The notes beneath the pieces were generated by a model, which worked only from the letters and a program-made list of their open reading frames with translations, was not told where the DNA came from and searched no databases. Positions 235 to 63,582 of a stretch of DNA of 64,000 nt are shown one piece after another (the first letter of the stretch is position 1; every line of letters starts with the position of its first letter). Made by a program: the position numbers and the translations under genes. Source of the DNA: a virus (Duplodnaviria; Caudoviricetes); the IMG/VR virus record IMGVR_UViG_3300005686_000039, positions 1,913 through 65,912 of that record. One strand, 5' to 3'.

Positions 235-252
235 GGTGACTGCACAGTCACC
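235..252. promoter_or_regulatory. Palindromic motif copy GGTGACTG-CA-CAGTCACC
   Basis: Perfect 8-bp dyad, intergenic. Confidence 0.7.
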
Positions 253-322
253 ACACGTTTTCGCTCGCTAAACATGCTTAGTTGCTCCGCCTACTGATAT
301 ATTCATGCTACCTGGCACGCGG

Positions 323-358
323 GGCTTGCTCGGCTTGCTCGGCTTGCTCGGCTTGCCC
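323..358. repeat. 9-bp tandem repeat GGCTTGCTC x4 (last copy variant)
   Basis: Read directly from sequence. Confidence 0.85.
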
Positions 359-577
359 GGCACGCCTAACGCCGCGTGCTACGCCGTGGCGTATGCCGCA
401 CGCTGGGACAACATTCATCTTGAGCCGCGCACGCGTGCCCGCCGCGCGCCGCGCCGCGAGCCACCGCCCGGTTGCGCGTTCCGGGGCCGCTTGCTGGGCG
501 TCGATGGGGGGTGCGGACCACGGGCGCCGGACGGGGTGGGGCCGAAACGCTAATCCACTAGCGCCCTCGCGATCTAC

Positions 578-822
578 AGGGTCAGAATGGCGAGCCCCGT
601 GGGGTCAGAATGGCGAGCCGCGTGGCGAGCCCCGTGGCGAGCCCCGTGGCGAGCCCCGTGGGGTCAGAATGGCGAGCCCCGTGGGGTCAGAATGGCGAGC
701 CCCGTAACGTGTCCGAATGGCGAGCCCCGTGGGGTCAGAATGGCGAGCCCGGCGCGCACGGCGCGCACGGGAGGGAGACCCCCCGTGGGACCGAAAAGAG
801 CGAGCCCCGTGGGGTCCGAAAA
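578..822. repeat. Composite tandem array of GGCGAGCCCCGT (about 10 copies) and GGGGTCAGAAT (5 copies plus variants)
   Basis: 23-bp and 12-bp units read directly; no unique spacers; apparently non-coding. Confidence 0.9.
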
Positions 823-974
823 GCTCCAAAAATTTTTCAGCCTCGCGCGTATAGCCGAGTTGTATAGACGTATGACATCCCTATTGACGCTAGACCAAAT
901 CAGGCATAGGGTCGTCACACACTCGTTCTAGGGGTGGTCTACTCGTCGTGGCTTTGCTAGGGCCTCACGACTTC

Positions 975-1000
975 GGGGCCGGTGCGCTAACACCGGCCCC
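975..1000. terminator. GC-rich hairpin just after the stop of the 1004-2131 gene
   Basis: GGGGCCGGTG-CGCTAA-CACCGGCCCC 10-bp stem; no U-run on the - strand. Confidence 0.45.
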
Positions 1001-1003
1001 TCT

Positions 1004-2131: not shown

Positions 2132-2174
2132 GGCAAATCGCTCCCTGTTCGCACCAGGCGGCGGTTTAGATCCT

Positions 2175-2290: not shown

Positions 2291-2317
2291 TGTTCGTGGT
2301 CTGTAGGGTCGTCATTC

Positions 2318-3498: not shown

Positions 3499-3508
3499 GG
3501 AGGGGATC

Positions 3509-14157: not shown

Positions 14158-16482
14158 ATGCTCACCTTCCCGATCAATAACTGGTCCGGTTCGTCCGTCC
14201 CGATCAATTCGCTGCGCTTCGCGTCGCCGTCAGGCAGCTACCTGACGCGCACACCCACCGTCGCCGGCAACCGTAAGCTGTGGACGTTTGCTGCGTGGGT
14301 GAAGCGCGGCCAGCTATCGACCGCACAAAACCTGCTGACTGCAGTCACGGCGACAGTGGACAGCCTAACGTTCAGCGCCTCGAACAATATAACGTTCAGC
14401 ACTGCTGCCGGGCTCACCCTGGCCACAACCCAGGTGTTCCGTGACTCCGGCGCATGGATGCACATCGTACTGCGCTACGATCAAGCGCAGCCCGTGGCGG
14501 CTGACCGCGTGAAGCTCTACGTAAATGGCGTCGAGATCACGTCGTTCGTCGTGGATAATCGCGGATCGCTGACGCCGACCAGCAGCCGTTTCAACACGGC
14601 GGTCATCCACTCCATCGGTAGGCACAACAACGGCTCGGCGTTCTTCGACGGCTACATGGCTGACATCTACCTGATCGACGGCGCCGCGCTCGCCCCGACC
14701 GCGTTCGGCTCGTTCGACGCTGACGGCATCTGGCAGCCCGGCCCGCAGTACGCCGGCGCGTACGGGACCAACGGCTTCTTCCTCGACACGGCGGAGGTCG
14801 TCGGCGGATCCTCGGTTCTCGACAGCGGCCCGAACGGATTGACGTGGACGCCGGTCAACTTCGACTTCAACCCGACCAGCTTCGACTTCCACGGCAGCTA
14901 CGACAGCCCGGCCGACAACTACTGCCACATGGGCTCAGTGTTCCTCACTGGGTCGACGGTGCGCGGCGGCGGCCTCGACATCACCAACGTCACTACCAAC
15001 CCATCGGTGGTGAACGGCACCTTCGGCATCTCCTACGGCAAGTGGTATTGGGAGGTCGAAGCCGAGGTGGTCACGGGCTCCTTCGCCGGCATCATCAACA
15101 ACACGGCGCGCGAGGCGACGGACGGTCGCACCGACTACCCCGGTCGCAGCGCTGACGGCTACTCGCTCGCGTTCGCGACGGGCAACAAGGTCAATGCCAG
15201 CGTCGCGGGCGTGGCCTACGGCACCCCGATCGTCGCCAACGATGTCGTGATGGTCGCGTTCGACGCCGACAACGGCAAGATCTGGTTCGGCAAGAACGGG
15301 ACGTGGTTCGGCGGCGGCGACCCGGCGGCGGGCACTGGCGAGGCGTTCGCGGGCATACCGCTGACGCGCGAGGTCTACTTCCCCGCGCACGGTAACAACG
15401 CGGCGGCCGGCGTCTCGCACTACAATTTCGGCCAGCGCGACTTCAAGCACGTCCCTCCGGCGGGCTTCGGCAAGCTGCGCGCGTCGTCGCTCAACCCGGT
15501 CGCGATCATCGACGGCGAGGACTACTTCGACGCCAAGCTGTACGCCGGCACGGGCGCTGCGCAGAGCATCACGGGCTACAACTTCCAGCCCGATCTCGTC
15601 GAGGTTCGTCCGCGAACGGCGCAAGGCACCAATTCGCCAATATATGACGCGGTGCGCGGTGCGCAGCGGCGGTGGTCTATCGAGCAGGCGGCGGCGGAGG
15701 CAGTCACGGACGACGGCGTGACCGGGTTCCTGGCCAACGGCTTCTCGCTGGGCACGCAGGCGTTGGTGAATAACGCGGGCCGCAATTTCGTCGGTGCGGC
15801 GTGGAAGCAGGGCAACGTACCTGGCCTGCAGATCATCACCTACACGGGCGACGGCGCGGCCAGCCGCAACATCGCGCACACGCTCGGCAAGAAGCCGGCG
15901 ATGATCATCATCAAGGCGCGCACATCGGCGAACTTCGGCGTGATGTACCACCAGTGGGGCGGCTGGCCCGGCAACGCGCCGGAGACTGGCGGCATGCCGT
16001 TCAACCTCGCGACTACGCAGTGGGCCGTCGTCGCCAGCTTGTGGAACAACACGGCGCCCACCGCTGCGCAGTTTACGGTTGGCAACGACGTGCGCGTCAA
16101 CGCGGCGGGTGTCGACTACGTCGCGTACGTGTGGTGCGAGGTGGAGGGCTTCTCTAAGTTCGGCCTCTACTACGCCAACGGCAACGCCAACGGCGCGTTC
16201 GCTTACTGCGGCTTCCGCCCGCAGTGGTTCTTCTGCATGGAGAGCGACACGCTCGCGGCGCCGACTGGCATGGACGACGCGCGCAACCCGCGCAACGTGC
16301 AGGGTACGGCGTTCCGGTGGATGTCCAACACGACATCCGAGAGCACGACGGACGACATGGACTTTGTGTCCAACGGCGCGAAGATGCGCGCGACCGGGAA
16401 CCAGACGAACCAGGCCGCGACGCTGCGGTATATGTTCGCCGCGTTCGCGCACCACCCGTTCAAACACGGAAGGGCTCGCTGA
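14158..16482 (+). CDS. Concanavalin-A/LamG-like plus SPRY-like virion protein, possible receptor-binding protein
   Basis: WTFAAWVKR, AWMHIVL, FDGYMAD (LamG-like); GKWYWEV, VAFDADNGKIWFGKNG (SPRY-like). Confidence 0.72.
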   Translation: MLTFPINNWSGSSVPINSLRFASPSGSYLTRTPTVAGNRKLWTFAAWVKRGQLSTAQNLLTAVTATVDSLTFSASNNITFSTAAGLTLATTQVFRDSGAWMHIVLRYDQAQPVAADRVKLYVNGVEITSFVVDNRGSLTPTSSRFNTAVIHSIGRHNNGSAFFDGYMADIYLIDGAALAPTAFGSFDADGIWQPGPQYAGAYGTNGFFLDTAEVVGGSSVLDSGPNGLTWTPVNFDFNPTSFDFHGSYDSPADNYCHMGSVFLTGSTVRGGGLDITNVTTNPSVVNGTFGISYGKWYWEVEAEVVTGSFAGIINNTAREATDGRTDYPGRSADGYSLAFATGNKVNASVAGVAYGTPIVANDVVMVAFDADNGKIWFGKNGTWFGGGDPAAGTGEAFAGIPLTREVYFPAHGNNAAAGVSHYNFGQRDFKHVPPAGFGKLRASSLNPVAIIDGEDYFDAKLYAGTGAAQSITGYNFQPDLVEVRPRTAQGTNSPIYDAVRGAQRRWSIEQAAAEAVTDDGVTGFLANGFSLGTQALVNNAGRNFVGAAWKQGNVPGLQIITYTGDGAASRNIAHTLGKKPAMIIIKARTSANFGVMYHQWGGWPGNAPETGGMPFNLATTQWAVVASLWNNTAPTAAQFTVGNDVRVNAAGVDYVAYVWCEVEGFSKFGLYYANGNANGAFAYCGFRPQWFFCMESDTLAAPTGMDDARNPRNVQGTAFRWMSNTTSESTTDDMDFVSNGAKMRATGNQTNQAATLRYMFAAFAHHPFKHGRAR

Positions 16483-39532: not shown

Positions 39533-42210
39533 GCCGCTCTCCTTCTCGTCTTGATGCTGGCCACCCGCGTCGTCTCTTCGGCGTACATGCCCAAGAGCAT
39601 CGACTGGAGCCGCTGCTTCTGCTTCACACCCTGGTAGGCTTTCAGCTCCGCAGGCGTCGAATGGATGTGGGCGATGAGCATGTGGTTCACCTGCCCTGGC
39701 CGGTCCATTCGGTTGTTCGCCTGCTCGTAGCCCTCGGCGGAGAAGTACACGCCCCACCAGATCGTCGTGTCGGCCGCAGTCAGCGTCAGTCCGTGCGACG
39801 CCGTCTTGGGATGCGCGACGAGGATCTTCGGACCACCGACTGCCTGGAACCTGCTCACGATGTCGCCGCGCTGGCCGCCCGACGTGTCGCCGGTGACACT
39901 CTCGACGACCCCCTCGCCGTACCGGGCGGTCAACTCGCGAACCAGTCGGCTGATCACGCCGGTGTAGGTGGCGAACACGATCGACTTGCCGACTGCGCTT
40001 TCGATCAGTTCACATAGTAACTCGAAACGCGGGGACCAGTCAAATTCGACAGTGCCCTGATCGCCGATTACAACGCCCTGGTAGATCTGGTGGATCTTCG
40101 ACATGCGCGCCGCCGCAGTCTGCGCGAGCACCGCCGTACCCGACTGCTGGTCCTCGTAGACCCACTGCTTGCCGATCTCGTCGATCGCCTTCTGCTGCTC
40201 GTCGCTGAGCGGTGCGTAGTAGTCGAGGTGCTGCACGGGCGGGATGTCGACGCAGTCCTCCTTCGCGAACCGAACCGCCGGCTGCAGCATGGAGAAGACG
40301 TAGTCCTTCACCTCGGCCTCGGGCTTGGGCGTGTACTTCGTCACCGACTTCGGGCCGTAGTTCACGACCTTCGCCGTGCACACCTTGTCGCGGTACGCGT
40401 TCATGGACGACGGCATGATGTGTGGGCAGATGATACGGCCCAGCGACCACGCGTCCTCCGGCGTCTGTGCCATCGGCGTGCCGGTCATCATCCAGATCGA
40501 GCGGTCGTGCAGCATGGCGCGCAGCGCCTTCGTCACGTCTGCGCGGAAGTTCTTGTACGCCGTCGCCTCGTCGCAGATGATGTGCGTGATCGTCGTGTCC
40601 TTCGCCAGCTCGGGCCAGATGGTGCGCAGGCCATCGTGGTTCAGGATCAGGATTTCGGCGCTCGTGTTGGCGAGCGCGGCGAGCCGCTTCTTCTTCGAGC
40701 CGGTCATCAGACCGACGACGGTCTGCGGCAGGATGTTGAAGCACTCGCGAGACCACACCGCCTCGGTGCACGAGAGCGGGCACAGTATGAGCAGGCGGCC
40801 GGCGAGCCCTTCCCGGCGCAGGTAGTCGTAGGCCCACAGCGCCGCCGCCGTCTTGCCGGTGTTACCCGTGACGAACACACAACCGTTGCGACGAAGCACG
40901 AGGAACGTGCTCGGCACCATGAAGCAGTATTTGAAGCCGTCCGAACTGCCGACGACCTTCGCGTTGAGCAGCCGAGTACCGTCCGCTCTTGAGCCGGCCA
41001 GCCCGACGTGTTGGCGATCGGTGACAGTAACGGTGAACTCGGTGTGACCCTTGTCCTCACGTACCGTGGCCACGACACGCGCGGTGCGGCCCGTAGCCGA
41101 AAACGCGTACTGCACGAAGTCGGCGGACGCCCGCGCGGTTGTCGAAAACACCCTCCGCCGGTCGCTCTGTGTGCCGTCCCAATGCAGCACCTCGTCGGCG
41201 ACCGTCGCGAGCTGACCCGGACTGCACGCCCACCACCACTCTCCGAACTCCTTGTCGGAGCGCGGGGCAGCGAACTTGAACACGCTGTACCCTTTGGCCG
41301 ACGCGTACTCGGGTTGGCACACTCGGTACTCGACCCCTGCGGCCTTGAGCAGCGCGTGCATACGGTCGATCTTGCGCTGGCGCTTCAAGCGAACTACGCA
41401 ATGTCGCGTGCGCGACGGGAAGCGCCCATCCGCTATGACCGCGATCTGCAGGCGCAGCATGTCGTCCGACATATCCACGCCAGCCGTGGCCGGAGCGCCG
41501 AACACGGTCGGTACCGCCGCGCTTTTGTACGCGATGGTATTCGTCCCGAGCTTGCGCGACCCTGCGGTCGGCAGTGGAGTGCCGTTGACCCACGCTACTC
41601 CACCCGCCAACACTTCGGCTGCCTGCATGACTACACGCTTCTCGCGCCCCACGTTGCGCGCTTTGTGATCGACGAGCAGCATGCGGTGTTCTAGGCTCAA
41701 GAGCTGGTCCACGCCGTACTTGTTCTTGAAGTGGACCATCTCATCGCACGGCAACTTAACGAACTCGCCGTCAACGAACTCCGCTTGGCCCGTGTCGTTG
41801 TTGAACTGCGCTACCTGCCCACCTGCGTAGTCGGCGATACGCCGCCACCCGGTAGGTGACAGGTATTCTGTGTCGGCGTCCACGCACCCGAGGCCGTTGA
41901 AGCAGAACGCCCGGTGATGCAGCGACAGGAAGCCCGCCGTCACCATCTGGTGCTCGAAGGGTTGGAACCGCCCAGGCCAGTCATAGCTCTCCAGCATCGG
42001 GCTCGGCGCGTCGTAGCCCAGCGACGCGAGCTTCTGCGCGTGGGCTAGATCGCGCGGCACGGCGACCAAAGTGCCAGCGGACGCCGTACTGATCTGCTTC
42101 GCCGAGCCCAGGTGGCTCGCGATCGTGTCGTAGTGCTCGTCGTCGAAGACGAACCAGCCGGGGTAGACCGCCCGAGGGGCGATGTTGTTGGTCAGGTGAC
42201 TGGCAGTCAT
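39529..42210 (-). CDS. SNF2-family helicase containing an intein
   Basis: Q motif FEHQ, split motif I GLG/TGKT, ICDEAT, MTGTP, SHGLTLT, QANNRMDRPGQ. Confidence 0.88.
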   Translation of the reverse strand: MTASHLTNNIAPRAVYPGWFVFDDEHYDTIASHLGSAKQISTASAGTLVAVPRDLAHAQKLASLGYDAPSPMLESYDWPGRFQPFEHQMVTAGFLSLHHRAFCFNGLGCVDADTEYLSPTGWRRIADYAGGQVAQFNNDTGQAEFVDGEFVKLPCDEMVHFKNKYGVDQLLSLEHRMLLVDHKARNVGREKRVVMQAAEVLAGGVAWVNGTPLPTAGSRKLGTNTIAYKSAAVPTVFGAPATAGVDMSDDMLRLQIAVIADGRFPSRTRHCVVRLKRQRKIDRMHALLKAAGVEYRVCQPEYASAKGYSVFKFAAPRSDKEFGEWWWACSPGQLATVADEVLHWDGTQSDRRRVFSTTARASADFVQYAFSATGRTARVVATVREDKGHTEFTVTVTDRQHVGLAGSRADGTRLLNAKVVGSSDGFKYCFMVPSTFLVLRRNGCVFVTGNTGKTAAALWAYDYLRREGLAGRLLILCPLSCTEAVWSRECFNILPQTVVGLMTGSKKKRLAALANTSAEILILNHDGLRTIWPELAKDTTITHIICDEATAYKNFRADVTKALRAMLHDRSIWMMTGTPMAQTPEDAWSLGRIICPHIMPSSMNAYRDKVCTAKVVNYGPKSVTKYTPKPEAEVKDYVFSMLQPAVRFAKEDCVDIPPVQHLDYYAPLSDEQQKAIDEIGKQWVYEDQQSGTAVLAQTAAARMSKIHQIYQGVVIGDQGTVEFDWSPRFELLCELIESAVGKSIVFATYTGVISRLVRELTARYGEGVVESVTGDTSGGQRGDIVSRFQAVGGPKILVAHPKTASHGLTLTAADTTIWWGVYFSAEGYEQANNRMDRPGQVNHMLIAHIHSTPAELKAYQGVKQKQRLQSMLLGMYAEETTRVASIKTRRRAA
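40861..41886 (-). mobile_element. Intein (342 aa) with LAGLIDADG-type endonuclease domain
   Basis: Starts CVDADTEYLSPTGW, ends YCFMVPSTFLVLRRNGCVFVTGN before Thr; AVIADG and LHWDG blocks. Confidence 0.88.
42196..42210. promoter_or_regulatory. Palindromic motif copy GTGACTG-G-CAGTCAT
   Basis: Contains the VRR-NUC stop and the helicase ATG. Confidence 0.65.
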
Positions 42211-43591: not shown

Positions 43592-44674
43592 TCACCCTGC
43601 AGTACGCGGTTTCTGCAGCCGGTTTTCCGGCAGCGTGATGACGTTGGCGTCGTCCAGACCGGGCAAACGATCGACCGCAGCCTGCACGTCCTCGCGAACG
43701 GCGTGCGCGTAGCGCATCGTGTGCTTGATGCTGGAGTGGCCGAGGATCTTTTGTATGATCTGCAACCCGACGCCCCGGTGGCCCAGCCACGTCGCCGTCG
43801 TGTGCCGCAGGTCATGCCAGTGGAAGTCCGCGATCCCGCACTGCTTCAATGCGCGCTCCCACTCGCGCTGGTGGTTCGTGAAGTCGAAGACGTGCTCGCT
43901 GTTGCGCGGCATCGACTGCAGGAGCTTCAACGCCTGGGCGCCGATGGGGAGCTGCTTGCGCCCGCCGCCCTTGGTCAGCACGTCCGCCGTGCGGGCGGTC
44001 CAGTCGATGCGGTCCCACCTCATCGACTGCGTCTCGATCCTGCGAGCGCCGGTGAAGAGGGTCCACAGCATCGCCACGGCGAGGTGCTGCGGCAGCGCGT
44101 CGGCGAGCTGCTTGGCCTGCTCCGGGGTCAGGTAGCGAATGCGCTCGCCGGCCTCCTTCTGCCAGTACAGCGACCACTCGATGTCTTGCACCGGCACCTT
44201 GAGCGCCTTCTTCGCGAACAGGTGCACGCCGCGCAGCCGGACGATCATGCGGTTCATGCCGGCGCCGTTGATACGCTTGCCGAGCCCGCGCCCGGTAGCC
44301 GCGCCCAGCCAGGCTTCGATCAGGCGGGTCACGTCGTTGCCGTCGACTGTAGCGTAGGCGCGGTCGGAGCCCAGCGTTTCCTCGATGCGCATGAGGTGGA
44401 CCATGGTCGTGTCTTCGGACGGGCGGTCCTTCACACGGACGGCGTGGTACTTCTCGATGACGGTCCCGACCGTCATCCGGTCTGGCTCCTGCGCGCGAGC
44501 CTCCTGCGACTTCAACGCGCCGGCGCGGGCCTCTCGTTCGACCTGTTCCGCTTTTCGGCGATCAGCCGTGCCGCAACTCCCTTGAAACCGCTGGCCTGCG
44601 ACGACGAAGTCGTAGTGGTATGTGACCGTTTTCGACCCATCCGCTTTTTTGGTTGTTCGCTTGGTGAGGGACAT
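43592..44674 (-). CDS. int: Tyrosine integrase
   Basis: TGARR, WHDLRH, LGH, TMRY catalytic residues. Confidence 0.92.
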   Translation of the reverse strand: MSLTKRTTKKADGSKTVTYHYDFVVAGQRFQGSCGTADRRKAEQVEREARAGALKSQEARAQEPDRMTVGTVIEKYHAVRVKDRPSEDTTMVHLMRIEETLGSDRAYATVDGNDVTRLIEAWLGAATGRGLGKRINGAGMNRMIVRLRGVHLFAKKALKVPVQDIEWSLYWQKEAGERIRYLTPEQAKQLADALPQHLAVAMLWTLFTGARRIETQSMRWDRIDWTARTADVLTKGGGRKQLPIGAQALKLLQSMPRNSEHVFDFTNHQREWERALKQCGIADFHWHDLRHTTATWLGHRGVGLQIIQKILGHSSIKHTMRYAHAVREDVQAAVDRLPGLDDANVITLPENRLQKPRTAG

Positions 44675-44832
44675 TTCTGCTGGCTCTCGATGAACGCTTC
44701 GATGTCGGACATCCTATAGCGCTTCTCGCGCCGGGTCGTGGGGTGCAGGTAGAAGTGCGGAATGTCGGTGCGCTGCAGCGAGCGCACCGAAACCCGAAGC
44801 ATCTCCGCAACCTCATGCGGCTTGAGGAACAT
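44512..44832 (-). CDS. xis: Excisionase-like HTH protein
   Basis: FLKPHEVAEMLRVS.RSL...RYRMSDIEAFI; upstream of and overlapping int. Confidence 0.65.
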   Translation of the reverse strand: MFLKPHEVAEMLRVSVRSLQRTDIPHFYLHPTTRREKRYRMSDIEAFIESQQKCPSPSEQPKKRMGRKRSHTTTTSSSQASGFKGVAARLIAEKRNRSNERPAPAR

Positions 44833-45043
44833 CGCCCCTCACTTCCGAGCCGGCGAGCGCATGCCGCCCCTTCGACGTGAGCTTGTACTTGAACTCGACG
44901 CGGTCCCACTCGACGAGACCGTTCACCGTGAGGTAGCTCACGACCCGCTTGCGGTCGGCGTCGATGCCGCCGAGCTGCAGCGATGGGAACATCTGCCCCG
45001 TCTGCCCCACGTACTCCAACGCGTCACGCGCCTGCTTGTCCAT
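44813..45043 (-). CDS. Small winged-helix-like hypothetical protein
   Basis: YL..NGLV...YKLTSKG; GGAGG RBS. Confidence 0.55.
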   Translation of the reverse strand: MDKQARDALEYVGQTGQMFPSLQLGGIDADRKRVVSYLTVNGLVEWDRVEFKYKLTSKGRHALAGSEVRGDVPQAA

Positions 45044-45344
45044 CCCCGCCTCCCGTTGCTGTCTGCAGCAGTGCTTCGCCTCTACTCGTCAGTACAACTT
45101 TCTTGCGGTCGAGCGTGATCCTGACGAGCCCCGCCCTGACCGCGTCCCAATACTTCGGGTGGTCTTTCATCTTGTCGTGCTCGCCGCCCTGCACGAGCAG
45201 CACTTCGATCAGGAACGCGCGCATGTTGTCCGCGTCCTGCACGACGCAGTCGGGGTTGATCAGCATGCGCTCGGTGCGTTCCTGTCCGTAGCGCACCTCG
45301 CGAGGGAGGTACACGCCGCGCGATTTGTAGACGCCCATCACCAT
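45024..45344 (-). CDS. Hypothetical protein, 106 aa
   Basis: Ends in a similar GLV...LTSRG winged-helix-like motif. Confidence 0.55.
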   Translation of the reverse strand: MVMGVYKSRGVYLPREVRYGQERTERMLINPDCVVQDADNMRAFLIEVLLVQGGEHDKMKDHPKYWDAVRAGLVRITLDRKKVVLTSRGEALLQTATGGGDGQAGA

Positions 45345-46662: not shown

Positions 46663-48533
46663 GTTTTCTTGATACCTCCGTATGTCTTCCCGTAGCCGGC
46701 CTCGCAGGCGATCGGGATGCCCGGCCACCAGCTCGGCGCCTCACTCATGCACTCGCGAACGTAGGCGACACCCTCTTCGGCCTCCGCCTCGGGGACGAGC
46801 GCGAGCACGGCGTCGTGCACCTGCAGCAGCACCGGATACCGACGACGGATCTTCTGCACCTGCGGGTCGATGATCTCGCGGGCGAGCGACTGGCCCAGGT
46901 TCTCCAGCAGCGTACCGCCGTGGATGTATTTGAGGCCGTTCGACTTGCCGCCGAAGAACGTGAACGCCAGCGACTTGCGCCCGGTCTGCTGGTCCGTGAT
47001 GTAGCGCAGGTCGGGGTACTTGAGCTTGAAGCCCGAAGGCAACTCGATGCTGTCGCTGTGCCAGATGATCGGGTGCGTCGGGTCGAGATCGGGCGGAACC
47101 GCGCCCGTCGCCATGGTCTTGAGCTGCTTGTCGAGCAGCGTCCACATCCCCGATATGCCCGTGTACGTCTTGCGGTACAGCGTGTTGATGCGCTCGGCCT
47201 CGTCCTCGCTGACGCGCAAGCCGGCCTGCACCCACAACATCTTCTGGAACGTCCGCGCGCCGACGCGGTACTGCGACGAGAGCATCGCGACCTTGCCGGT
47301 CTGGCGGTAGTTGGCGACGATCGGATCCGTCTTGGTAAGCGCCTTCGTCACGGGCACGCCGAACAGCGTCGTGGCGAAGTCGGAGTACGCGTCGCCGCCG
47401 ACGCGCAGCGTCTCGACGAGATCGTCCTGCCCGCAGAACTTGGCGACCACGCGCAGCTCGATGTTGGAGCTGTCGGCCTCGACGAACACATACCCATCGG
47501 GAGCCTCGACACCGTCGCGCATCTTCGACGAGCGGCCGACGTTCTGCCAGTTGAGCCCTTCCTGCCCCGACAGGCGGCCGGTCTGCATCGCCCCGCAGAA
47601 AGCGAGCGGGACCGGGCACAGCTTGCCGTCCTCGGCCAGTTCGAGATACGCCTTCGACCGGGTCTCTTCGATCGACGACTTCACCGCAAGGCGGGCGAGC
47701 ACGAGATCGCGAACGTCGGTGTTCGGATCGTCTTGCAGGTCGACGAACTCCTGATCCGTCTTGCTGAACGCGTAGGTCTCCTTGCCCGTGGCGCGCGAGA
47801 TCTTCGTCGGCGGCTCGATGCCGTGCTCGCGCAAGATGTCCGCGAACTGCTTGTTGCTGTTGAGCTGCGTCTTGGTGAGGCGGCAGTTCGCGACGGCGTT
47901 CCTCTTGATTTCCACCTCCGTCTCGTGACACTCGCGCATCACGTCAGCGTTGAGGACGATGCCCGGCTGGGTCATCATCCTGACGGTCCAGTCGAGTGTG
48001 GCGAGCATCTTCTTCGGGAACTCCGGCCACATCGATCGGAAGATGAGGGCGGTCTGCTCGGCGTCCTGGCAGGCGTACGCACCCAGCGTGCGCTCTTGCT
48101 CGGGCGACAGGTCGCGGACGCCCTTCGTGGCGTAGAGCGCGCCGCCCTTCTCCAGCTTGCCGACGTGCCCGTAGTGCTGGGCCACGGCGTCCAGCGAGCG
48201 AGACGGGACCGTGCCGCCGAGCACGCATCGCGCCATGCCGAGCGTGTCGACGTAGGTGTGCGGGTGGCACTCGTCGATCTCGGCGAGGATGAGCCCATCG
48301 AACGGCAGGTTGTGGCCGATCAGCAGGGTCTTCGACCAGTCGATGTCGTTCTGCAGAACCGACTTGAGGTGACTGCCAGTCACCCACTCGGCCGGCGCAC
48401 CGTTCAGCTTGAGCGCGGCGCCGTGGTACTTGAAGCGCGGGTCACGCACGTAGCGGATGGTGTTCATCTTGCTGAGCGAGTAGTCGTTCGACCAGTAGCT
48501 CTCGTAGTCTAGGACGAGTACGTCGTATTTCAT
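46659..48533 (-). CDS. Family A DNA polymerase with 3'-5' exonuclease domain
   Basis: LDYES, HNLPFD, YACQD exonuclease motifs; EADSSNIELR, R..GK.....QY, QVHDA polymerase motifs. Confidence 0.88.
   Translation of the reverse strand: MKYDVLVLDYESYWSNDYSLSKMNTIRYVRDPRFKYHGAALKLNGAPAEWVTGSHLKSVLQNDIDWSKTLLIGHNLPFDGLILAEIDECHPHTYVDTLGMARCVLGGTVPSRSLDAVAQHYGHVGKLEKGGALYATKGVRDLSPEQERTLGAYACQDAEQTALIFRSMWPEFPKKMLATLDWTVRMMTQPGIVLNADVMRECHETEVEIKRNAVANCRLTKTQLNSNKQFADILREHGIEPPTKISRATGKETYAFSKTDQEFVDLQDDPNTDVRDLVLARLAVKSSIEETRSKAYLELAEDGKLCPVPLAFCGAMQTGRLSGQEGLNWQNVGRSSKMRDGVEAPDGYVFVEADSSNIELRVVAKFCGQDDLVETLRVGGDAYSDFATTLFGVPVTKALTKTDPIVANYRQTGKVAMLSSQYRVGARTFQKMLWVQAGLRVSEDEAERINTLYRKTYTGISGMWTLLDKQLKTMATGAVPPDLDPTHPIIWHSDSIELPSGFKLKYPDLRYITDQQTGRKSLAFTFFGGKSNGLKYIHGGTLLENLGQSLAREIIDPQVQKIRRRYPVLLQVHDAVLALVPEAEAEEGVAYVRECMSEAPSWWPGIPIACEAGYGKTYGGIKKT
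48368..48384. promoter_or_regulatory. Palindromic motif copy GGTGACTG-C-CAGTCACC inside the polymerase gene
   Basis: Perfect 8-bp dyad in coding sequence. Confidence 0.55.
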
Positions 48534-51022: not shown

Positions 51023-51037
51023 GTGACTGTCAGTCAC
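51023..51037. promoter_or_regulatory. Palindromic motif copy GTGACTG-T-CAGTCAC
   Basis: Contains the stop of 51034-51813, just upstream of the DUF3150-like RBS. Confidence 0.7.
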
Positions 51038-52729: not shown

Positions 52730-53219
52730 TGTGCTCGTCCGTGTTGGGCTGCTCCAGTTTGCGCAGCATGTGCTGTACTTCGAGAGGTAGCCCCATGTGT
52801 ACGATGTACGAGAGGACGGCCAACTCGGTCGTGTGCTCGGGGAACAGCGCCTTGGCGTACGCTTCAATCGACGTGACTGTCAGTCGCTTGCCGTCGACCC
52901 ACCACTCGCTAATACCATTGGCGATGTTGATCACGGCGGGACCATCACGTCGATCCCGCTTGCCGTGTCGGCGCCACTCCGTAACGCCGGTCGCCTTGTT
53001 GATGTACGCAGGCTCGGTGTCGTGGTGCACGACGCCGTTGACATAGTGCGTGCGTACGCCGTGCTTGTCGCGCCAGCCGTTGGCGGGCACCACCTTTCCT
53101 TGTGGGTTCATCTCGAACACCGCTCGTTCCTCCACCATCCGCCTGCGATCCTCGGCCGTGCCCCACGCCGGTATGTTACCCGGCAGGTAGATCAGCACTT
53201 TCCTTGTCGGATCGGACAC
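52722..53219 (-). CDS. Protein with W..G..HR.DGPA-type beta-hairpin repeats
   Basis: HHDTEPAY...EWRRHGKRDRRDGPAV...EWWVDGKR; GTG start after GAGG. Confidence 0.6.
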   Translation of the reverse strand: MSDPTRKVLIYLPGNIPAWGTAEDRRRMVEERAVFEMNPQGKVVPANGWRDKHGVRTHYVNGVVHHDTEPAYINKATGVTEWRRHGKRDRRDGPAVINIANGISEWWVDGKRLTVTSIEAYAKALFPEHTTELAVLSYIVHMGLPLEVQHMLRKLEQPNTDEHNV

Positions 53220-53622: not shown

Positions 53623-53960
53623 CAGATCCTCACACTCTCGTGGGGTGCATTGTCCACGCCGCAGTTTGGGCACTCGTCGTCGACCCGGCAGTCGTACACG
53701 TCGTCCCACTTCTCGCCGCACCCGCGACACTCGTACGAGTTCTTGTACTCGACGACCGGCCACAGCACCTTGCGTATCTTCGCGGCCCGCTCAGTGTCGC
53801 CGGACTTCTCCGCCCAATTCGCCGCGTCTTCGAGCGCCGACCTGAGCCAGTCGCCGTCCTCCGGTGGTGACAGCCAGTCAGGGTCCACGCCCATGTGCTG
53901 CACGAGCATCATGACGGCCTGCACGCAGGCGCGGTGGAACCGTTCGGTGTTGGTGTTCAC
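53622..53960 (-). CDS. Zinc-ribbon protein
   Basis: YECRGCG...DECPNCG; AAGGAG RBS before GTG. Confidence 0.6.
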   Translation of the reverse strand: MNTNTERFHRACVQAVMMLVQHMGVDPDWLSPPEDGDWLRSALEDAANWAEKSGDTERAAKIRKVLWPVVEYKNSYECRGCGEKWDDVYDCRVDDECPNCGVDNAPHESVRI

Positions 53961-55611: not shown

Positions 55612-55640
55612 TGTGTGGTGTCCTTTGGTACGGTAAGCGC

Positions 55641-55654
55641 GACTGCTCAGTCAC
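55641..55654. promoter_or_regulatory. Palindromic motif variant GACTG-CT-CAGTCAC
   Basis: Between the ATPase stop and the vWA start. Confidence 0.55.
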
Positions 55655-56799: not shown

Positions 56800-56814
56800 G
56801 TGACTGTCTGTCAC
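56800..56814. promoter_or_regulatory. Palindromic motif variant GTGACTG-T-CTGTCAC
   Basis: In the leader downstream of the 56.9 kb promoter. Confidence 0.6.
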
Positions 56815-56880: not shown

Positions 56881-56909
56881 ATTATACCCCAATACGGGGT
56901 GCAAGTCAA
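56881..56909 (-). promoter_or_regulatory. Sigma70-type promoter TTGACT-N17-TATAAT
   Basis: Near-consensus; spacer holds ACCCC-GTATT-GGGGT dyad. Confidence 0.85.
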
Positions 56910-57341: not shown

Positions 57342-57884
57342 TCACATGCACTCCGCTAGCTTATCCACGAAGTCGGCCGCCGCCAGCGTGGCCTGCAACT
57401 TGTCGCTCTCACTCCCTATGAAGACGAGCAGCGCGCCTGGGGTGCCCACGCTGGGCGTGACCGTGATCGACGTGTACGACCGGAACGATTGCAGCTTCGC
57501 TTCGACGCGCTGCTTGCGCTTCTGTGCCCCCTCGAGCCGCGCCATGCTGTAGCGCATGGCGAGCGGATGTTGCTTCGGAACGAGAAGCGAAATCCTCCAC
57601 ACGTCGATGGTCTCCCACCTGCGCATCCTGTTCGCCGTCTCGACCTGCCGCTGCGCCGTCTTGCGCAGCATAGCGCACTGATAGACGAGCCCGCGCTGCT
57701 CGATGAACCACGTGTGGACATCGGGATTAGCGGGAACCGCGTCTTCCGGCAGCGCCGCGACGGCGTCAGCGAGCATGGTGTCGAAGTTCGTGCCCATGGT
57801 GTAGCTCTTCCCTTGGCGGCGCCCGACAAACGCGTAGGCGAACGCGTCTGCTAGGTCGTTCTTCGTGTGGTGACTGTCAGTCAC
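57342..57884 (-). CDS. Hypothetical protein (start uncertain)
   Basis: GTG start lies inside a palindrome copy; alternative ATG near 57797. Confidence 0.55.
   Translation of the reverse strand: MTDSHHTKNDLADAFAYAFVGRRQGKSYTMGTNFDTMLADAVAALPEDAVPANPDVHTWFIEQRGLVYQCAMLRKTAQRQVETANRMRRWETIDVWRISLLVPKQHPLAMRYSMARLEGAQKRKQRVEAKLQSFRSYTSITVTPSVGTPGALLVFIGSESDKLQATLAAADFVDKLAECM
57870..57884. promoter_or_regulatory. Palindromic motif copy GTGACTG-T-CAGTCAC
   Basis: Contains the upstream stop (57877) and the downstream GTG. Confidence 0.7.
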
Positions 57885-58747: not shown

Positions 58748-58760
58748 GTGACTGTCAGTC
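58748..58760. promoter_or_regulatory. Palindromic motif variant GTGACTG-T-CAGTC
   Basis: Contains the stop of the 58755 gene. Confidence 0.65.
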
Positions 58761-59072
58761 GCCCTCGCGCCGAGTATCCCCAGCCTGCGCATCCAGCGTG
58801 CGGTCCCACGTATCGTAGGTGCCACGCGGAAAGTTGGCTGCGCGCTGTTCAGCGCGCTCGCGCATCGCTCGGGCGACCTCGGTCAGCGCAATGACGCAGT
58901 CGAGACGATCGGCGAACCGGCGCTCGATCTGGCCATTCGAGGACAGCGACACGGCCTGCGGATGCGTCACCGGCACCCACACGACGGGCTCGCACCCGCC
59001 AGGGCAGTGCTCGACCCAACACTCGTAGCCGGCGTGCTCGAAGATGTCTCTGTGCATAACTGACCCTGGCAC
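58755..59072 (-). CDS. Hypothetical protein
   Basis: GGGAGGGAGG RBS before GTG 59072 (or ATG 59057). Confidence 0.55.
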   Translation of the reverse strand: MPGSVMHRDIFEHAGYECWVEHCPGGCEPVVWVPVTHPQAVSLSSNGQIERRFADRLDCVIALTEVARAMRERAEQRAANFPRGTYDTWDRTLDAQAGDTRREGD

Positions 59073-59100: not shown

Positions 59101-59409
59101 TCAGTGGACCGTACAGACGGCGTACTGTGTGACAAGCTCGGTCATCGGGTCGCCAGCGTCCTCGATGGTGTCCAAGTCTGCGAGCACGCGCCGCTCGATG
59201 GCGTCCGCCATCCGCTTGTTGCGTGCGAAGTCGATGTCGTAGATCGCGCGCCGGTAGTCGTCGTGGCTCACGAGCGCGTTGTAGAACGTCACGCCCGTCA
59301 CGATGTTGTGCAGTATGTGCGCGTCGTTGTCGTTGGTCTCGTCGATCTTGACGACGCGGTAGCGTGGGTTCTTCTCGGCGGGCTTGGGTCTTCTCTTGGT
59401 CTTGCTCAT
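59101..59409 (-). CDS. Hypothetical protein, 102 aa
   Basis: ATG abuts a palindrome copy. Confidence 0.6.
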   Translation of the reverse strand: MSKTKRRPKPAEKNPRYRVVKIDETNDNDAHILHNIVTGVTFYNALVSHDDYRRAIYDIDFARNKRMADAIERRVLADLDTIEDAGDPMTELVTQYAVCTVH

Positions 59410-59422
59410 GACTGGCAGTCAC
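59409..59422. promoter_or_regulatory. Palindromic motif copy TGACTG-G-CAGTCAC
   Basis: Contains the stop at 59419 and touches the ATG at 59409. Confidence 0.7.
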
Positions 59423-59625
59423 TCCCCGTTCTCGTTCACCGGCCGCACGCTCACGATCCTGGGCTTGCCCGCTCTCTGTATCGGAAACGTGCCACGAAAC
59501 CACGTCCAGAACGCCGCTCGCGCTTTGCGCTCGGTCGGCTCTACCGAGAACCAGGCGCTCTCCACGCCCCAATCTCGATAGTAGATTTTGTACGTGAACT
59601 TTTGGCCTTTGAGGTTGTACTTCAT
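59419..59625 (-). CDS. Hypothetical basic/aromatic protein, 68 aa
   Basis: Bracketed by two palindrome copies. Confidence 0.6.
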   Translation of the reverse strand: MKYNLKGQKFTYKIYYRDWGVESAWFSVEPTERKARAAFWTWFRGTFPIQRAGKPRIVSVRPVNENGE

Positions 59626-59638
59626 GACTGGCAGTCAC
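59625..59638. promoter_or_regulatory. Palindromic motif copy TGACTG-G-CAGTCAC
   Basis: Touches the ATG at 59625. Confidence 0.7.
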
Positions 59639-60045: not shown

Positions 60046-60060
60046 GTGACTGTCAGTCAC
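60046..60060. promoter_or_regulatory. Palindromic motif copy GTGACTG-T-CAGTCAC
   Basis: In the leader downstream of the 60.2 kb promoter, enclosed by a 12-bp IR. Confidence 0.75.
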
Positions 60061-60158: not shown

Positions 60159-60187
60159 AGTATAACCCGAAACGCGGTGCAAGTCAA
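60159..60187 (-). promoter_or_regulatory. Sigma70-type promoter TTGACT-N17-TATACT
   Basis: Near-consensus; shares GATTTGACTTGCACC with the 56.9 kb promoter. Confidence 0.82.
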
Positions 60188-60212
60188 ATCGAGTGGTGTC
60201 GGTAGGGACTGG

Positions 60213-60650
60213 TTACGAAGCAACGGATCGCAACTTCGCGCCCGCTGGCTTCGCTGCGATCGGCCGCGCTGGGCGTGCCGGCGGGCGCGGCGGAACATCA
60301 ACCGGCTCCACACCCGCCTCCCCGATCACGGCATGCTCCACTACGGCCTCGTTGGCGCCCTCGCCCCACGCTGTTTCGATAAACAACGCCAACCGCTCGC
60401 GCGCTTCGCGGTTGCACCACGTCACTGCCAGCGTGCCCTTGTGGTCGTGCAGCTCGATCACTGCGCCAGCAAACCACTTGCCGACGCTCGGGCTCAACTG
60501 GTCCGCCATGTGCAGCGCTTGGCTGTACGCCATCAGGACACGGAACAGCCGCGTGCTCTCCCTGTAGCAAGATACGCGAACGCCGAGGGTGCTTCCGTAG
60601 TCCACGTCGGCGGGCGGTATGCTGCGTGTGTTCTCTTCGTCGATTTCCAT
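60213..60650 (-). CDS. Hypothetical protein, 145 aa
   Basis: GAAGGG RBS. Confidence 0.6.
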   Translation of the reverse strand: MEIDEENTRSIPPADVDYGSTLGVRVSCYRESTRLFRVLMAYSQALHMADQLSPSVGKWFAGAVIELHDHKGTLAVTWCNREARERLALFIETAWGEGANEAVVEHAVIGEAGVEPVDVPPRPPARPARPIAAKPAGAKLRSVAS

Positions 60651-60674
60651 GCCAGTACCCTTCGTTCTAGGGGT

Positions 60675-63464
60675 TCACTTCTTCACGAGCGACAAGTGTG
60701 ACTGCGGCAGCTTGGGGCGCTTGCCGCTCAACGGTACGCCGTCGTCGCCCCAATCGATGTTGCCCTTCATGTGCGCGCTCATGGCCGCACGCGCCGCACT
60801 CAGCTTCGGCAGCACGTAGTAGCTACCTTCGGCGTTGCGCTGCTTGAACGCGTCGCCGAATATCTTTTTCAGCCGTCGAACAATCTTGTTGCGCGTCGTG
60901 CGGTTGCGCGCTCCGAGGTAGCGGTTCGCAGCCCGTGTCAGGTCGTTCATGTGGTCGCCCGTCAGCGTTATGGCGCCGTCCTGCCATTCACCAGATTTCA
61001 TGTTGGCGATCACGCCGGGGTTCTGCGCGGTCGGGTCGTCGTATATGATGCCCATCGACATGGCCTGGATCATGAAGCCGTCGATCGTCCCTTCCGCCGT
61101 CTCCACCTTCTGGTCGATCAAGGCGTCCGTCGTCGGCACCGTGCTCGCCGGCCGCCATCCGGTAAGGTCGATCGTCTCGCAGTAGTACGCGAACGCCGCT
61201 ATCACGTCGGGGTTGTCGATGGCGTCGTGGACTTTGTCCCAATACTCACGGTCGCGCGCTCTGTGCGTCGACACGTCGAACACGGCGAAGCGGCGGGCCA
61301 TCGGGCCGGCAGGCACGACGAAATCCTCGTTGCTGGCCATTATCACAGCCATGCGGTTCGGTGCGCTGTACGGCTCGCGGTTCTTGCGCTCAATCACGAT
61401 GCTGTCCGCCGTGATCAGGTCTTTCAACGGGCCGCGCACGCGATGGTCGCCGGCAAAGAAACTCTCTTCGGCGAACAGGATACGCACGCCTTCGAGGATG
61501 GAGTTGAAGTTGCCCGTGACGTGCTTCTGCTGCGAGACTTTTTGCGACGCTGGATCGAAGAGCTTCATGAGGATCTTCGCGAAGCTCGTCTTGCCCGTGC
61601 CTTCCTCTTCGGAGTGCAGCACGACCGCGACGCCGGGGTTGCTCGCGGGGTTCTGCCACAGCCACGCGCAGTACCGTATCAGCCACTCGTAGTAGTCAGT
61701 GTTGCTGTTGGCTATGACCTCGTAGACCATGTCGAGCAGGATGTCGCAGTTGCCCGGTCGTGACTGCACAGTCAGCCCCGAGAACGTGTTGATAGCTCCG
61801 TCCACGATCGCGCCGAACGGGGCGGATATGTCGCTCTTGGTGCCCTTGTACTGCGGGACGGTCGGCACCCACGCCTTGAGCTGCTTGTCGGTGAGCCCGG
61901 TCACGTACTGCAACGCGCTGGAGTTCAGCTCGCGCCGCTCCTGCAGGTCGTAGAAGAACATCTTCGCGCCTTCGAGGTACGGGATGAACCGCTGGCTCAT
62001 GCCGTCCGCCAGCAGACCCGCGCCAGCGAGCTTGTACGTGCCATACCCCTTGGGCTTGAACAGCGCCGGTCCTTCGGCAGTGATAGCTGGATCGAGCGCA
62101 TCTGAGACTTCGATGCTCGTGGTGAGCGACGGGTCGGCGGGAGACGGGTCGGCGGGAGACGGGTCGGCGGGAGACGGGTCGGCGGGCGCTTGCGCATATG
62201 CCGCAGCCTTGTCCGTGCGGATGATCGTCTCGGGGCGCATGTGTTCGGGGATGCCCGCCCGGTCGGCGACCTCGCGCGCTGCCCTGCGCACGGACGCCGT
62301 CGTGAGCAGGCCCCCCTTTTCGCCCACTCGCGCGCCCTCGCTGTCTTTGCGCTCCTGCTGGTTGCTGGCCTGCTCCAGCAAGTCGAGGTTGTCTTGGACG
62401 GTGTACGCCGCGTTCGCCTCGGGCACCTCGGCCATCGTGTCAAGGAACACCTGCACGGCGTAGTTGGGGTCCGCGCCGTCCGCGACAGCAACGGCGATAG
62501 CGCACGCGATGCGGAAGCACCCGTCGCGCTCGAAGATGTTGAAGGTGTCCCCTGGCTTGGCGGTGCGCGCGAGGAACGGGAGGATTTCGGATAGCTGCTC
62601 AAGATCACGCGCGCCGGCCCGCACGAGGGCTCTGCGAGGCTTAGCGGCTCTGGCTGCCGCAGCTTGCGTCGGTGTGGGCGCTGGGACGGCTGCTTGCGCC
62701 TGCATCGCGCCGGTGACTGTGGCAGTCACGGGGAGAAGGATGGCTTCGATCTCGGATCGCGAGTGCAGGGCGCCGTTGCTGATGACGTAGACCGGGCGCG
62801 GCGGCAGACCGGGCTTGAGGTTGTACGTGCCGGGCAGGCGCATGTACGCGCTCTCGACCGTGAACTTCGACTTGTCGGCCACGAGCTTCACGTCTTGCGC
62901 CGCGATGGCGACCGTGAAACTGGCGGCGAGCGCCTTCCACGTCTGTGGGTCTATCGCTTCGTCAAGCTCGACATGGACGTGGATGCCGCCCCCCGAGTTG
63001 ACGTACGTCGGCTCCAGGCCCAGCAGCGTCTCGAAGGTGTAGCGAGCGGCGGCGAGAGCGCCTTCCTGCGTTTCGTAGCAGGGCGCACCCGATTTCGTCG
63101 TGCCTCCCGCCTTCACGTCGATATCGAACCAGAAGCGGTCGACGGCGCAGACGTTGGCGTTGGTGTGCTGCTTGGCAATCGCCGCTTCCAGGCTGGAGCG
63201 CTTTCCCGTGCTCGCGACCGACAAAGGGACGAAGCTGGCGTAGCTGGCCCAAACCTCGGCCTCGGCGTTCTTCGGGTCGTGCGCGAACGCAATGGCTTGT
63301 TGCACCGTAGCGCACTGCCATGCCCGCGTGGGCGCACTGGAGCGTGGCCAGCGGAGGCCGATGATTACGTTCGAGGCGTGCGCGGCCCAATTGTCGAGAA
63401 ACGTCTGGTTCTCGTTGTCGTTTGGTGCGCCGAGAGGGTTGACGGAGGGTGCGGTCTGCGGCAT
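60675..63464 (-). CDS. Primase-polymerase (AEP-type) fused to an SF3/DUF5906-like helicase
   Basis: FWFDID, VNSGGGIHVH, MRLPGTYN primase motifs; GTGKTSF Walker A, LFAEES, IMASN. Confidence 0.85.
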   Translation of the reverse strand: MPQTAPSVNPLGAPNDNENQTFLDNWAAHASNVIIGLRWPRSSAPTRAWQCATVQQAIAFAHDPKNAEAEVWASYASFVPLSVASTGKRSSLEAAIAKQHTNANVCAVDRFWFDIDVKAGGTTKSGAPCYETQEGALAAARYTFETLLGLEPTYVNSGGGIHVHVELDEAIDPQTWKALAASFTVAIAAQDVKLVADKSKFTVESAYMRLPGTYNLKPGLPPRPVYVISNGALHSRSEIEAILLPVTATVTGAMQAQAAVPAPTPTQAAAARAAKPRRALVRAGARDLEQLSEILPFLARTAKPGDTFNIFERDGCFRIACAIAVAVADGADPNYAVQVFLDTMAEVPEANAAYTVQDNLDLLEQASNQQERKDSEGARVGEKGGLLTTASVRRAAREVADRAGIPEHMRPETIIRTDKAAAYAQAPADPSPADPSPADPSPADPSLTTSIEVSDALDPAITAEGPALFKPKGYGTYKLAGAGLLADGMSQRFIPYLEGAKMFFYDLQERRELNSSALQYVTGLTDKQLKAWVPTVPQYKGTKSDISAPFGAIVDGAINTFSGLTVQSRPGNCDILLDMVYEVIANSNTDYYEWLIRYCAWLWQNPASNPGVAVVLHSEEEGTGKTSFAKILMKLFDPASQKVSQQKHVTGNFNSILEGVRILFAEESFFAGDHRVRGPLKDLITADSIVIERKNREPYSAPNRMAVIMASNEDFVVPAGPMARRFAVFDVSTHRARDREYWDKVHDAIDNPDVIAAFAYYCETIDLTGWRPASTVPTTDALIDQKVETAEGTIDGFMIQAMSMGIIYDDPTAQNPGVIANMKSGEWQDGAITLTGDHMNDLTRAANRYLGARNRTTRNKIVRRLKKIFGDAFKQRNAEGSYYVLPKLSAARAAMSAHMKGNIDWGDDGVPLSGKRPKLPQSHLSLVKK
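62128..62186. repeat. 15-bp tandem repeat x4 encoding the PADPS linker
   Basis: GACGGGTCGGCGGGA units. Confidence 0.9.
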
Positions 63465-63509
63465 AGATATTCGGCCTTCGGCTGTGGTTGGAACAGTCGT
63501 CGGACTTGC

Positions 63510-63550
63510 AAGGCCCGTGCGCTCCTGGCAGAGCGGCGGGCCTTTTTCTT
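63510..63550 (+). terminator. Intrinsic-terminator-like hairpin with U-run on the + strand
   Basis: AAGGCCCG...GCTC-N6-GAGC...CGGGCCTT followed by TTTCTT. Confidence 0.55.
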
Positions 63551-63567
63551 TGCCCCGGCGAACGTGG

Positions 63568-63582
63568 GTGACTGACAGTCAC
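63568..63582. promoter_or_regulatory. Palindromic motif copy GTGACTG-A-CAGTCAC
   Basis: In the primase leader. Confidence 0.75.

Follow-up and report, generated by a model that had tools for sequence, protein, structure and literature searches.

Why does a short palindrome, TGACTG-N1-3-CAGTCA, recur through one arm of a podovirus-like phage genome, and what reads it there? The genome is the single-contig IMG/VR record IMGVR_UViG_3300005686_000039 (65,912 bp), of which bases 1913-65912, a stretch of 64,000 nucleotides (nt), are the window analysed here; coordinates are those of the window unless marked as genome positions. Window 2198-35658 is the structural arm, on the plus strand, and the early/replication arm occupies the minus strand of window 35655-64000 together with genome 47-4043, 32.5 kb in all. 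The palindrome is a real, conserved and selected element, confined to the early arm and dispersed across it. We read its copies, with a probability of roughly 0.45 and on the basis of sequence analysis, as double-stranded DNA (dsDNA) sites for one dimeric, co-evolving phage protein that would block or silence early transcription.

A palindrome confined to the early arm

Twelve perfect copies occur in the window, where an earlier note on this DNA had placed them, give or take 1-2 nt according to how the flanking G is treated. Dinucleotide shuffles of the sequence gave a mean of 0.00 copies, and none of 100 reached a single one. A further two perfect copies (genome 932 and 1308) and one with a single mismatch (genome 627) lie in the 1,912 bases that the window leaves out, again in the minus-strand arm, for a whole-genome total of 14 perfect and six one-mismatch copies, five of the latter in the window. 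The four one-mismatch copies listed earlier (52874, 55640, 56801 and 58749) are real, and a fifth, at 53868, had been missed. All 20 copies lie in the early arm (P = 4.9e-5 for the 14 perfect ones), and the sole look-alike in the structural arm is a zero-spacer variant at 14336, just as had been noted.

When the early-arm open reading frames (ORFs) were shuffled with synonymous codons, 0.02 copies were obtained on average against seven observed, and none of 300 shuffles reached seven. The enrichment over shuffled controls that the earlier note had anticipated is therefore borne out with codon-preserving shuffles as well, and the two kinds of shuffle rule out chance and codon bias as the origin of the motif. 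Lone half-sites were not enriched. The conserved unit is slightly longer than the searched motif, namely GTGACTG-N1-3-CAGTCAC: of 38 non-redundant copies from the phage and its relatives, 32 have G at -1 and 35 have C at +1. Spacers of 1, 2 and 3 nt coexist in this one genome in a ratio of 9:4:1.

The copies are placed unevenly with respect to genes (Table 1). Thirteen of the 20 lie at gene junctions or in leaders and seven inside genes, for which the minus strand is the sense strand; the intragenic ones include those in the polymerase and primase genes to which the earlier note had pointed (PolA, 48370; prim-pol, 61761 and 62714). Copies are enriched about threefold at gene junctions and promoter leaders, although many are still found within genes. 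The motif itself supplies TGA stop codons at 51024, 57871, 58749, 59409 and 42197, and the copy at genome 932 supplies a GTG start codon. A copy follows 43-105 nt downstream of each of two sigma-70-like promoters supported by the scan (11 and 10 of 12) and of one weaker TTGACT box. Relative to start codons, positions range from about -160 to +10 and extend deep into genes, and this variability argues against a fixed role in translation initiation.

Table 1. Copies of the palindrome, promoters and genes referred to in the text (aa, amino acids)
Feature	Window position	Strand	Context
Perfect copy, 2-nt spacer	237..250		non-coding gap; ~50 nt upstream of TTGACT box, 150 nt before first early gene (ATG at 86)
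Zero-spacer variant TGACTGCAGTCA	14336..14347		structural arm
Perfect copy, 2-nt spacer	38236..38249		inside 238-aa ORF 37840-38556 (-), frame GTG ACT G..; possible internal start with GGGGGA before it; kept in L062, L065
Perfect copy	42197..42209		ATG of SNF2 helicase, with upstream Shine-Dalgarno AAGGAGAG, and TGA stop of Hjc-like gene; kept in L062, L065
Perfect copy	48370..48382		inside PolA, codons ~51-55; kept in relatives
Perfect copy	51024..51036		junction: TGA stop of 259-aa gene, 11 nt before ATG of DUF3150-like 296-aa gene; orthologous junction copy in L065, L066, L071
One-mismatch copy	52874..52886		intragenic; CGACTG on sense strand, mismatch removes in-frame TGA
One-mismatch copy	53868..53880		intragenic
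One-mismatch copy	55640..55653		between MoxR-like AAA and DUF2201/VWA genes; perfect at same junction in L065, L070, L071
One-mismatch copy	56801..56813		leader, ~+61 to +73 from TTGACT-17-TATAAT promoter; 54 nt before AAA gene ATG
Perfect copy	57871..57883		junction: holds TGA stop of upstream gene; flanking G belongs to GTG start of 180-aa gene
One-mismatch copy	58749..58761		overlaps stop of 126-aa gene; 54 nt before lipoprotein-like gene (58266-58682)
Perfect copy	59409..59421		fills gap from TGA stop of 68-aa gene to ATG of 102-aa gene
Perfect copy	59625..59637		abuts ATG of 68-aa gene
Perfect copy	60047..60059		leader, ~+93 from TTGACT-17-TATACT promoter; 91 nt before ATG at 59956
Perfect copy, 2-nt spacer	61761..61774		inside prim-pol/DUF5906 gene
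Perfect copy, 3-nt spacer	62714..62728		inside prim-pol/DUF5906 gene
Perfect copy	63569..63581		leader, ~105 nt before prim-pol ATG; downstream of TTGACT box 63660-63655
Sigma-70-like promoter TTGACT-17-TATAAT (11/12)	56881..56909	-	
Sigma-70-like promoter TTGACT-17-TATACT	60159..60187	-	order promoter then motif conserved in L070
106-aa winged-helix-like protein (wHTH-106)	45024..45344	-	beside xis/int; best candidate reader
76-aa winged-helix-looking protein	44813..45043	-	assigned from sequence pattern only
HTH_17 (Xis/AlpA-like) protein	44512..44832	-	next to integrase
375-aa protein with MarR-like C-terminal winged helix	1004..2131	-	separate unit upstream of early arm; ends at strong hairpin 975-1000
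Tyrosine integrase	43592..44674	-	

Conservation and turnover in relatives

The earlier note had named a lack of conservation in related phages as grounds for giving up the motif, and on testing the motif proved to be conserved. Syntenic relative contigs were reached through their PolA homologues. In the closest of them (L062, 96% relative) the same copies are kept, down to the same one-mismatch variants. At 63% PolA identity, L065 and L070, which are parts of one JGI contig of 35.5 kb, together carry 18 perfect copies; L071 has eight in 11.7 kb, and L066 (62%) has three perfect copies plus one in 12 kb. The spacer in L065/L070, L071 and L066 is mostly 2 nt, often GC or CG, with 1-nt and 2-nt spacers at about 4:14 in L065/L070. 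When independent database gene calls are used for the relatives, intergenic sequence makes up 12% of the total and holds 8 of 21 copies (P 0.002), and the stretch from -60 to +30 nt around start codons makes up 14% and also holds eight (P 0.005), with the majority still being intragenic.

At 62-63% PolA identity, orthologous positions are kept at PolA codon ~51, at the helicase start, at the AAA/DUF2201 junction, at the junction preceding the DUF3150-like gene and in the 238-aa gene. The PolA copy is truly intragenic, as the 50 residues preceding it include the conserved DxE exonuclease motif, and its right arm is kept even though it encodes Ser-His here and Gln-Ser in the relatives. Conservation of the same arm in two coding registers points to selection on the nucleotides. 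For the same reason, and since the flanks are unrelated and other frames are used elsewhere, a shared N-terminal peptide (MTxSH or MTxQS) was rejected as the origin of the motif. In an unrelated 44-kb IMG/VR contig (L134:10497-11662), four copies of the same 14-mer are part of a 30-nt repeat with which four neighboring paralogous small genes begin, their first 10 codons reading MT(E/A)QSPRVPA. A widespread mobile element was rejected as well, because scans of 2.9 million IMG/VR contigs for exact matches to the 15-mer and 16-mer forms of the motif returned singletons and a few local pairs (L100, L183 and L020) on unrelated contigs.

At greater distance the palindrome changes. The contigs L068 and L069 (45% PolA identity) have no TGACTG palindrome but carry 11-13 copies of GACTC-N3-5-GAGTC in 19.7 kb (for example, L068:1265-14720), with a GANTC site in each arm and the GACT/AGTC core in common with the motif of this phage. 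No integrase was found in those 19.7 kb. In four further relatives with 38-49% identity (L067 and L073-L075) no palindrome is enriched. Such turnover, with a similarly built palindrome of another sequence at 45% identity and none further out, is what would be expected for a site that co-evolves with its reader.

Reading the palindrome

We infer that one sequence-specific, likely dimeric, phage-encoded protein binds the sites and has co-evolved with them. Because the sites are spread over early-operon leaders, many cistron junctions and some genes, across the whole 32-kb arm, such a protein would act mainly as a roadblock or silencer rather than at a classical promoter-overlapping operator. It might hold the arm silent during lysogeny or close it down in late infection. 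The earlier note saw no repressor in the sequence, which was wrong: the phage encodes an integrase and four helix-turn-helix (HTH) or winged-helix candidates. The best current candidate for the reader is the small winged-helix-like protein wHTH-106, encoded next to xis/int, with orthologues beside int in L062, L065 and L066. It and the 76-aa protein have the winged-helix pattern ...GL(V/I)...LT.(K/R)G.... An AlphaFold model of wHTH-106 based on seven sequences reached a predicted local distance difference test score (pLDDT) of 63 overall and 74-83 in the core, and its top Foldseek matches, though weak (E 0.09-0.6), were all winged-helix regulators (MarR family, DtxR/IdeR and AspA). A profile of the wHTH-106 family detects it at each of the four motif-bearing loci spanning this region and at none of five loci without the TGACTG motif, which speaks for it as a candidate reader.

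Several points weigh against a dimeric silencer of this kind: (i) spacers of 1, 2 and 3 nt are mixed in one genome, which a rigid dimer should tolerate poorly; (ii) any feature that follows from the palindromic form would fit a hairpin as well; (iii) copy 237 lies upstream, not downstream, of its nearest promoter (a TTGACT box); (iv) the wHTH-106 model is only moderately confident and its fold matches are weak; (v) the co-occurrence of wHTH-106 with the motif is confounded by phylogeny, as the loci are not independent, which leaves the protein no more than a candidate; and (vi) a purely lysogenic role is doubtful, since the relative at 45% identity has a palindrome of its own and no integrase in 19.7 kb.

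Whether the motif is read as a duplex or as a hairpin was weighed on its own. The earlier note had favored dsDNA on the grounds that a 1-nt spacer cannot form a loop. That argument fails, because the inner G-C pair of a 1-nt-spacer copy opens to give, as RNA, a 6-bp stem with a triloop at -6.2 to -8.4 kcal/mol; 2-nt-spacer copies form a tetraloop (-6.8 kcal/mol) and the 3-nt-spacer copy a 7-bp stem (-8.8 kcal/mol), and the RNA hairpin makes up 79-96% of the ensemble. The corresponding DNA hairpins reach -4 to -5.5 kcal/mol. The dsDNA site for a dimeric protein nevertheless remains the best reading of the sequence, on other evidence. Across copies and lineages the arms are invariant over exactly 7 bp and the center is free, with no excess of complementarity beyond ±1 (9 of 38 against 12.4 expected); at ±2 to ±8, complementary bases are no more frequent than by chance. 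This is the pattern of an operator read in the major groove, whereas a hairpin kept for its structure only would be expected to drift by compensatory change or to extend. On balance, we consider it slightly more likely than not that the motif is read as duplex DNA, and the hairpin readings, taken together, appear somewhat unlikely.

The strongest of the hairpin readings is a structure in early mRNA, with a stem of 6-7 bp and a loop of 3-4 nt, that would be read by a phage RNA-binding protein or nuclease and would serve translational repression, cistron coupling or the onset or limitation of transcript decay. Bacteriophage T4 RegA and RegB offer a model for such a role, as a single factor there acts on many early transcripts near their translation-initiation regions; their targets are short unstructured motifs, unlike the conserved stem here, and no RegA or RegB homologue was found in this phage. 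The computed stability of the hairpin speaks for it, and spacers of differing length are readily understood as loops. The copies are limited to regions whose sense transcript is early, those in leaders are all transcribed, 9 of the 20 overlap or abut a stop codon, Shine-Dalgarno sequence or start codon, and the near-start enrichment in relatives fits as well. However, a conserved stem with a variable loop is the reverse of what most RNA-binding proteins recognize, there is neither covariation nor stem extension, placement is irregular with respect to both ribosome-binding sites and start codons, and half of all copies lie deep in genes. The one-mismatch copies show no sense-strand G-U bias either (two of seven are compatible and three are C-A), although they are few and two are forced by stop-codon avoidance. 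We regard the mRNA hairpin as rather unlikely. A variant is a phage factor that reads the stem sequence and tolerates loops of 3-5 nt, in early mRNA or in transient single-stranded DNA (ssDNA), for an arm-wide shut-off or processing of early transcripts, with the preferred loop length shifting by lineage from 1 to 2 nt along with the reader. We consider this variant unlikely; if it were correct, it would be a new kind of global early-gene control and could explain the palindromes of the actinophage Clusters O and EG (see below) too.

A hairpin could also form in extruded or single-stranded DNA and act as an N4-type promoter, as a priming signal for prim-pol or as a target of the Hjc-like resolvase in replication or recombination. 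The geometry fits that of N4 early promoters, which have a 5-7 bp stem and a 3-nt loop, the DNA hairpin reaches -4 to -5.5 kcal/mol, on the plus (template) strand three of the six one-mismatch copies read T-G, and prim-pol, the Hjc-like protein and a PD-(D/E)XK nuclease are all encoded in the arm. Against this, no sign of a virion RNA polymerase was seen in the 2,100-aa virion protein, which matched LPD38 and phrog_616 only and had no Protein Data Bank (PDB) relative; host-type promoters already serve the arm, the loops are not conserved, copies sit at start codons or within genes and not at the distance of a promoter, and confinement to one arm would not be expected of a priming signal. We consider this reading improbable.

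Recombination joints for swapping early genes between phages, similar to PeSL, integron sites or boundary sequences, are slightly less probable still. Window 56.8-60.1 kb is partitioned by six copies into small-gene units, the phage encodes a tyrosine integrase, and two of six L070/L071 indel ends lie at most 35 nt from a copy. None of about 10 indel or replacement ends relative to L062 adjoins a copy, however, and the overall count of 2 of 16 is about the chance level, given that motifs and breakpoints both favor gene junctions. Copies also occur inside conserved core genes (PolA, prim-pol and DUF2201), and 7-bp arms are too short for homologous exchange. The indel breakpoints therefore lend no support to the recombination site that the earlier note had entertained.

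That note had also likened the motif to E. coli matS, and a matS/MatP-like or Noc/SlmA-like system, for organizing or compacting half of the chromosome rather than for controlling transcription, is the least probable of the explanations considered. The outer pentamers GTGAC/GTCAC are indeed those of matS, and restriction to one chromosomal region is reminiscent of macrodomain markers. The rest of the analogy did not hold: matS is a 13-bp site (GTGACRNYGTCAC) with a 3-nt spacer, in contrast to 5-7 nt between the pentamers in this phage. The best match to the MatP family (PF06303), in the DUF3150-like 296-aa protein beside copy 51024, reached 15.5 bits against a cut-off of 27 (Pfam-wide E 0.067). 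It was confined to two near-identical members of that protein family, another member of which matches DUF3150; the same search gave sub-cut-off matches in control genomes, and the family also occurs in relatives without any palindrome. Identity with matS was thus rejected on spacing and for want of a credible MatP. Likewise, ParB/parS was not matched, as no ParB-family protein (PF02195) was detected in the genome.

Published analogues and genome context

The earlier note described the motif as unlike known phage operators and thereby overlooked published dispersed systems, namely stoperators and the Cluster O and EG palindromes (PMC9283540, PMC4351075, PMC7302621). The nearest published analogue is that of the Cluster O mycobacteriophages, which carry 34 copies of 17-bp palindromes (TGTTCGGNNNCCGAACA), 14 intergenic, 10 near 5' ends and 10 intragenic, most densely in the leftward arm; they have no known function, and the authors predict a dimeric DNA-binding protein that acts on something other than initiation (PMC4351075). 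Both systems have invariant 7-bp arms around a free center, tens of copies in the non-structural arm with mixed intergenic, 5'-proximal and intragenic placement, conservation across the cluster and no tie to promoters. They differ in that the spacer is fixed at 3 bp in Cluster O and varies from 1 to 3 bp here with a lineage-specific preference, that many copies here supply stop or start codons, and that the Cluster O phages have no integrase, belong to another phage type with hosts of another phylum and have unrelated sequences. Microbacterium Cluster EG phages carry 18-bp inverted repeats (GATCAACCNNGGTTGATC) 14-22 bp upstream of start codons (PMC7302621). These too number at least 8-10, occupy short intergenic regions of the non-structural arm and are conserved despite diverging surroundings, but their distance to the start codon is rather fixed, whereas copies here range from well upstream to inside genes.

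Stoperators of the Cluster A mycobacteriophages (L5) and of R4-like Streptomyces phages are asymmetric 13-mers, bound by a two-domain monomer, functional in one orientation only and found in both arms (PMC9283540, PMC10276819). As with the present sites, a single site recurs many times in a temperate phage, scattered through short intergenic gaps, away from promoters as well as at them, and stoperators provide a mechanistic model for a block of elongation. The palindrome is confined to one arm, however, no gp71-like repressor was recognized, and membership in the stoperator family was rejected because the site is a perfect palindrome and not an asymmetric 13-14-mer oriented along transcription. 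The start-associated sequences of Cluster K were not matched either, given that the motif here is palindromic and lies at about -160 to +10 and inside genes. The temperate Streptomyces phage phiC31 reportedly has conserved inverted repeats (CIRs) of 17 bp with a fixed spacer, many of them intergenic in the early region and bound by the c repressor; by that account the CIRs come close to the present palindromes, although neither the phage nor its host is related.

Several actinophage clusters are thus reported to carry short palindromes dispersed over the non-structural arm, with a reader shown for none, and the palindrome described here is a further instance of this described but unexplained class, which it extends to an uncultured, temperate, podovirus-like lineage. 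Particular to this phage are the variable spacer that shifts with lineage, a motif that doubles as stop and start codons, and the conservation of intragenic copies. Experimental handles are provided by relatives that keep the arms while preferring a 2-nt over a 1-nt spacer, by a more distant relative whose palindrome is built alike but differs in sequence, by intragenic copies that persist in spite of coding pressure, and by a small winged-helix protein that tracks the motif.

The genome has 65% G+C and is rated complete by CheckV. Its lineage is uncultured, podovirus-like and distant from every cultured phage: megablast against cultured phages gave no close relative, the portal shares only 28% identity with Rhizobium and HMO-2011-type phages, and the C-terminus of prim-pol ~30% with phages of the YuA and Xp12 types. 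The tyrosine integrase indicates that the phage is probably temperate; prophage relatives sought in reference genomes were not found. The structural arm encodes terminase, portal, major head protein, internal virion protein, tail fibers and the 2,100-aa LPD38 protein. The early arm encodes prim-pol/DUF5906, many small ORFs, MoxR-like AAA, DUF2201/VWA, DUF3150-like and PolA proteins, the PD-(D/E)XK nuclease, the small winged-helix-looking proteins, HTH_17, the integrase, the Hjc-like protein and an SNF2 helicase, and in a Pfam and PHROGs search of ~40 early proteins almost all were without a family.

Site avoidance in this genome is extreme. GANTC is almost absent genome-wide (window 1-64000), with four sites against ~213 expected; L075 has none against 77 expected, and L068 has a normal number. 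Such scarcity points to pressure linked to CcrM or to a host whose restriction system is specific for GANTC. A link between CcrM/GANTC and the motif was rejected, as the palindrome of the relative holds GANTC and that of this phage does not. CCCGGG, CCGCGG, GGGCCC, GAGCTC, CAGCTG, GACGTC, AGGCCT, ACCGGT, TCCGGA and CCTAGG have zero copies against 22-78 expected, and CACGTG and CTCGAG have one each, while CGATCG, CTGCAG, GTCGAC, GATC and TCGA are over-represented two- to threefold. The genome is thus one that shows extreme avoidance of restriction sites and nevertheless enriches a single 15-bp palindrome.

At the head of the early arm is a non-coding gap of 0.75 kb (window 250-1004) with tandem repeats (GGGGCTCGCC-type units and a 9-bp unit four times), which may be an origin or control region; a comparable gap precedes the early arm in L070. 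Both contig ends (genome 1-60 and 65853-65912) carry repeated GATGATC/ATGATCA words that may be terminal or packaging-related repeats or may mark an assembly boundary. The SNF2 helicase gene has an in-frame insertion of 1,026 bp (window 40861-41886, minus strand) relative to L062 (893 against 552 aa), in which no domain was recognizable. MORN-like repeats (G.REW.VNGKLHR.DGPA) are found in small minus-strand proteins at 56996-57340 and 52722-53498, and the 114-aa MORN-like protein is the best conserved small protein across relatives (63% identity). In the small-gene region, a 138-aa ORF (58266-58682, minus strand) has a lipoprotein signal peptide and lipobox (…LAGC), and its sequence makes a role in superinfection exclusion or host modification possible. 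Finally, a GapR-type DNA-binding protein is encoded at the early-arm end in two of the more distant relatives (L073:21807-21890 and L074:20682-20969), which hints at alphaproteobacterial hosts for this phage group.

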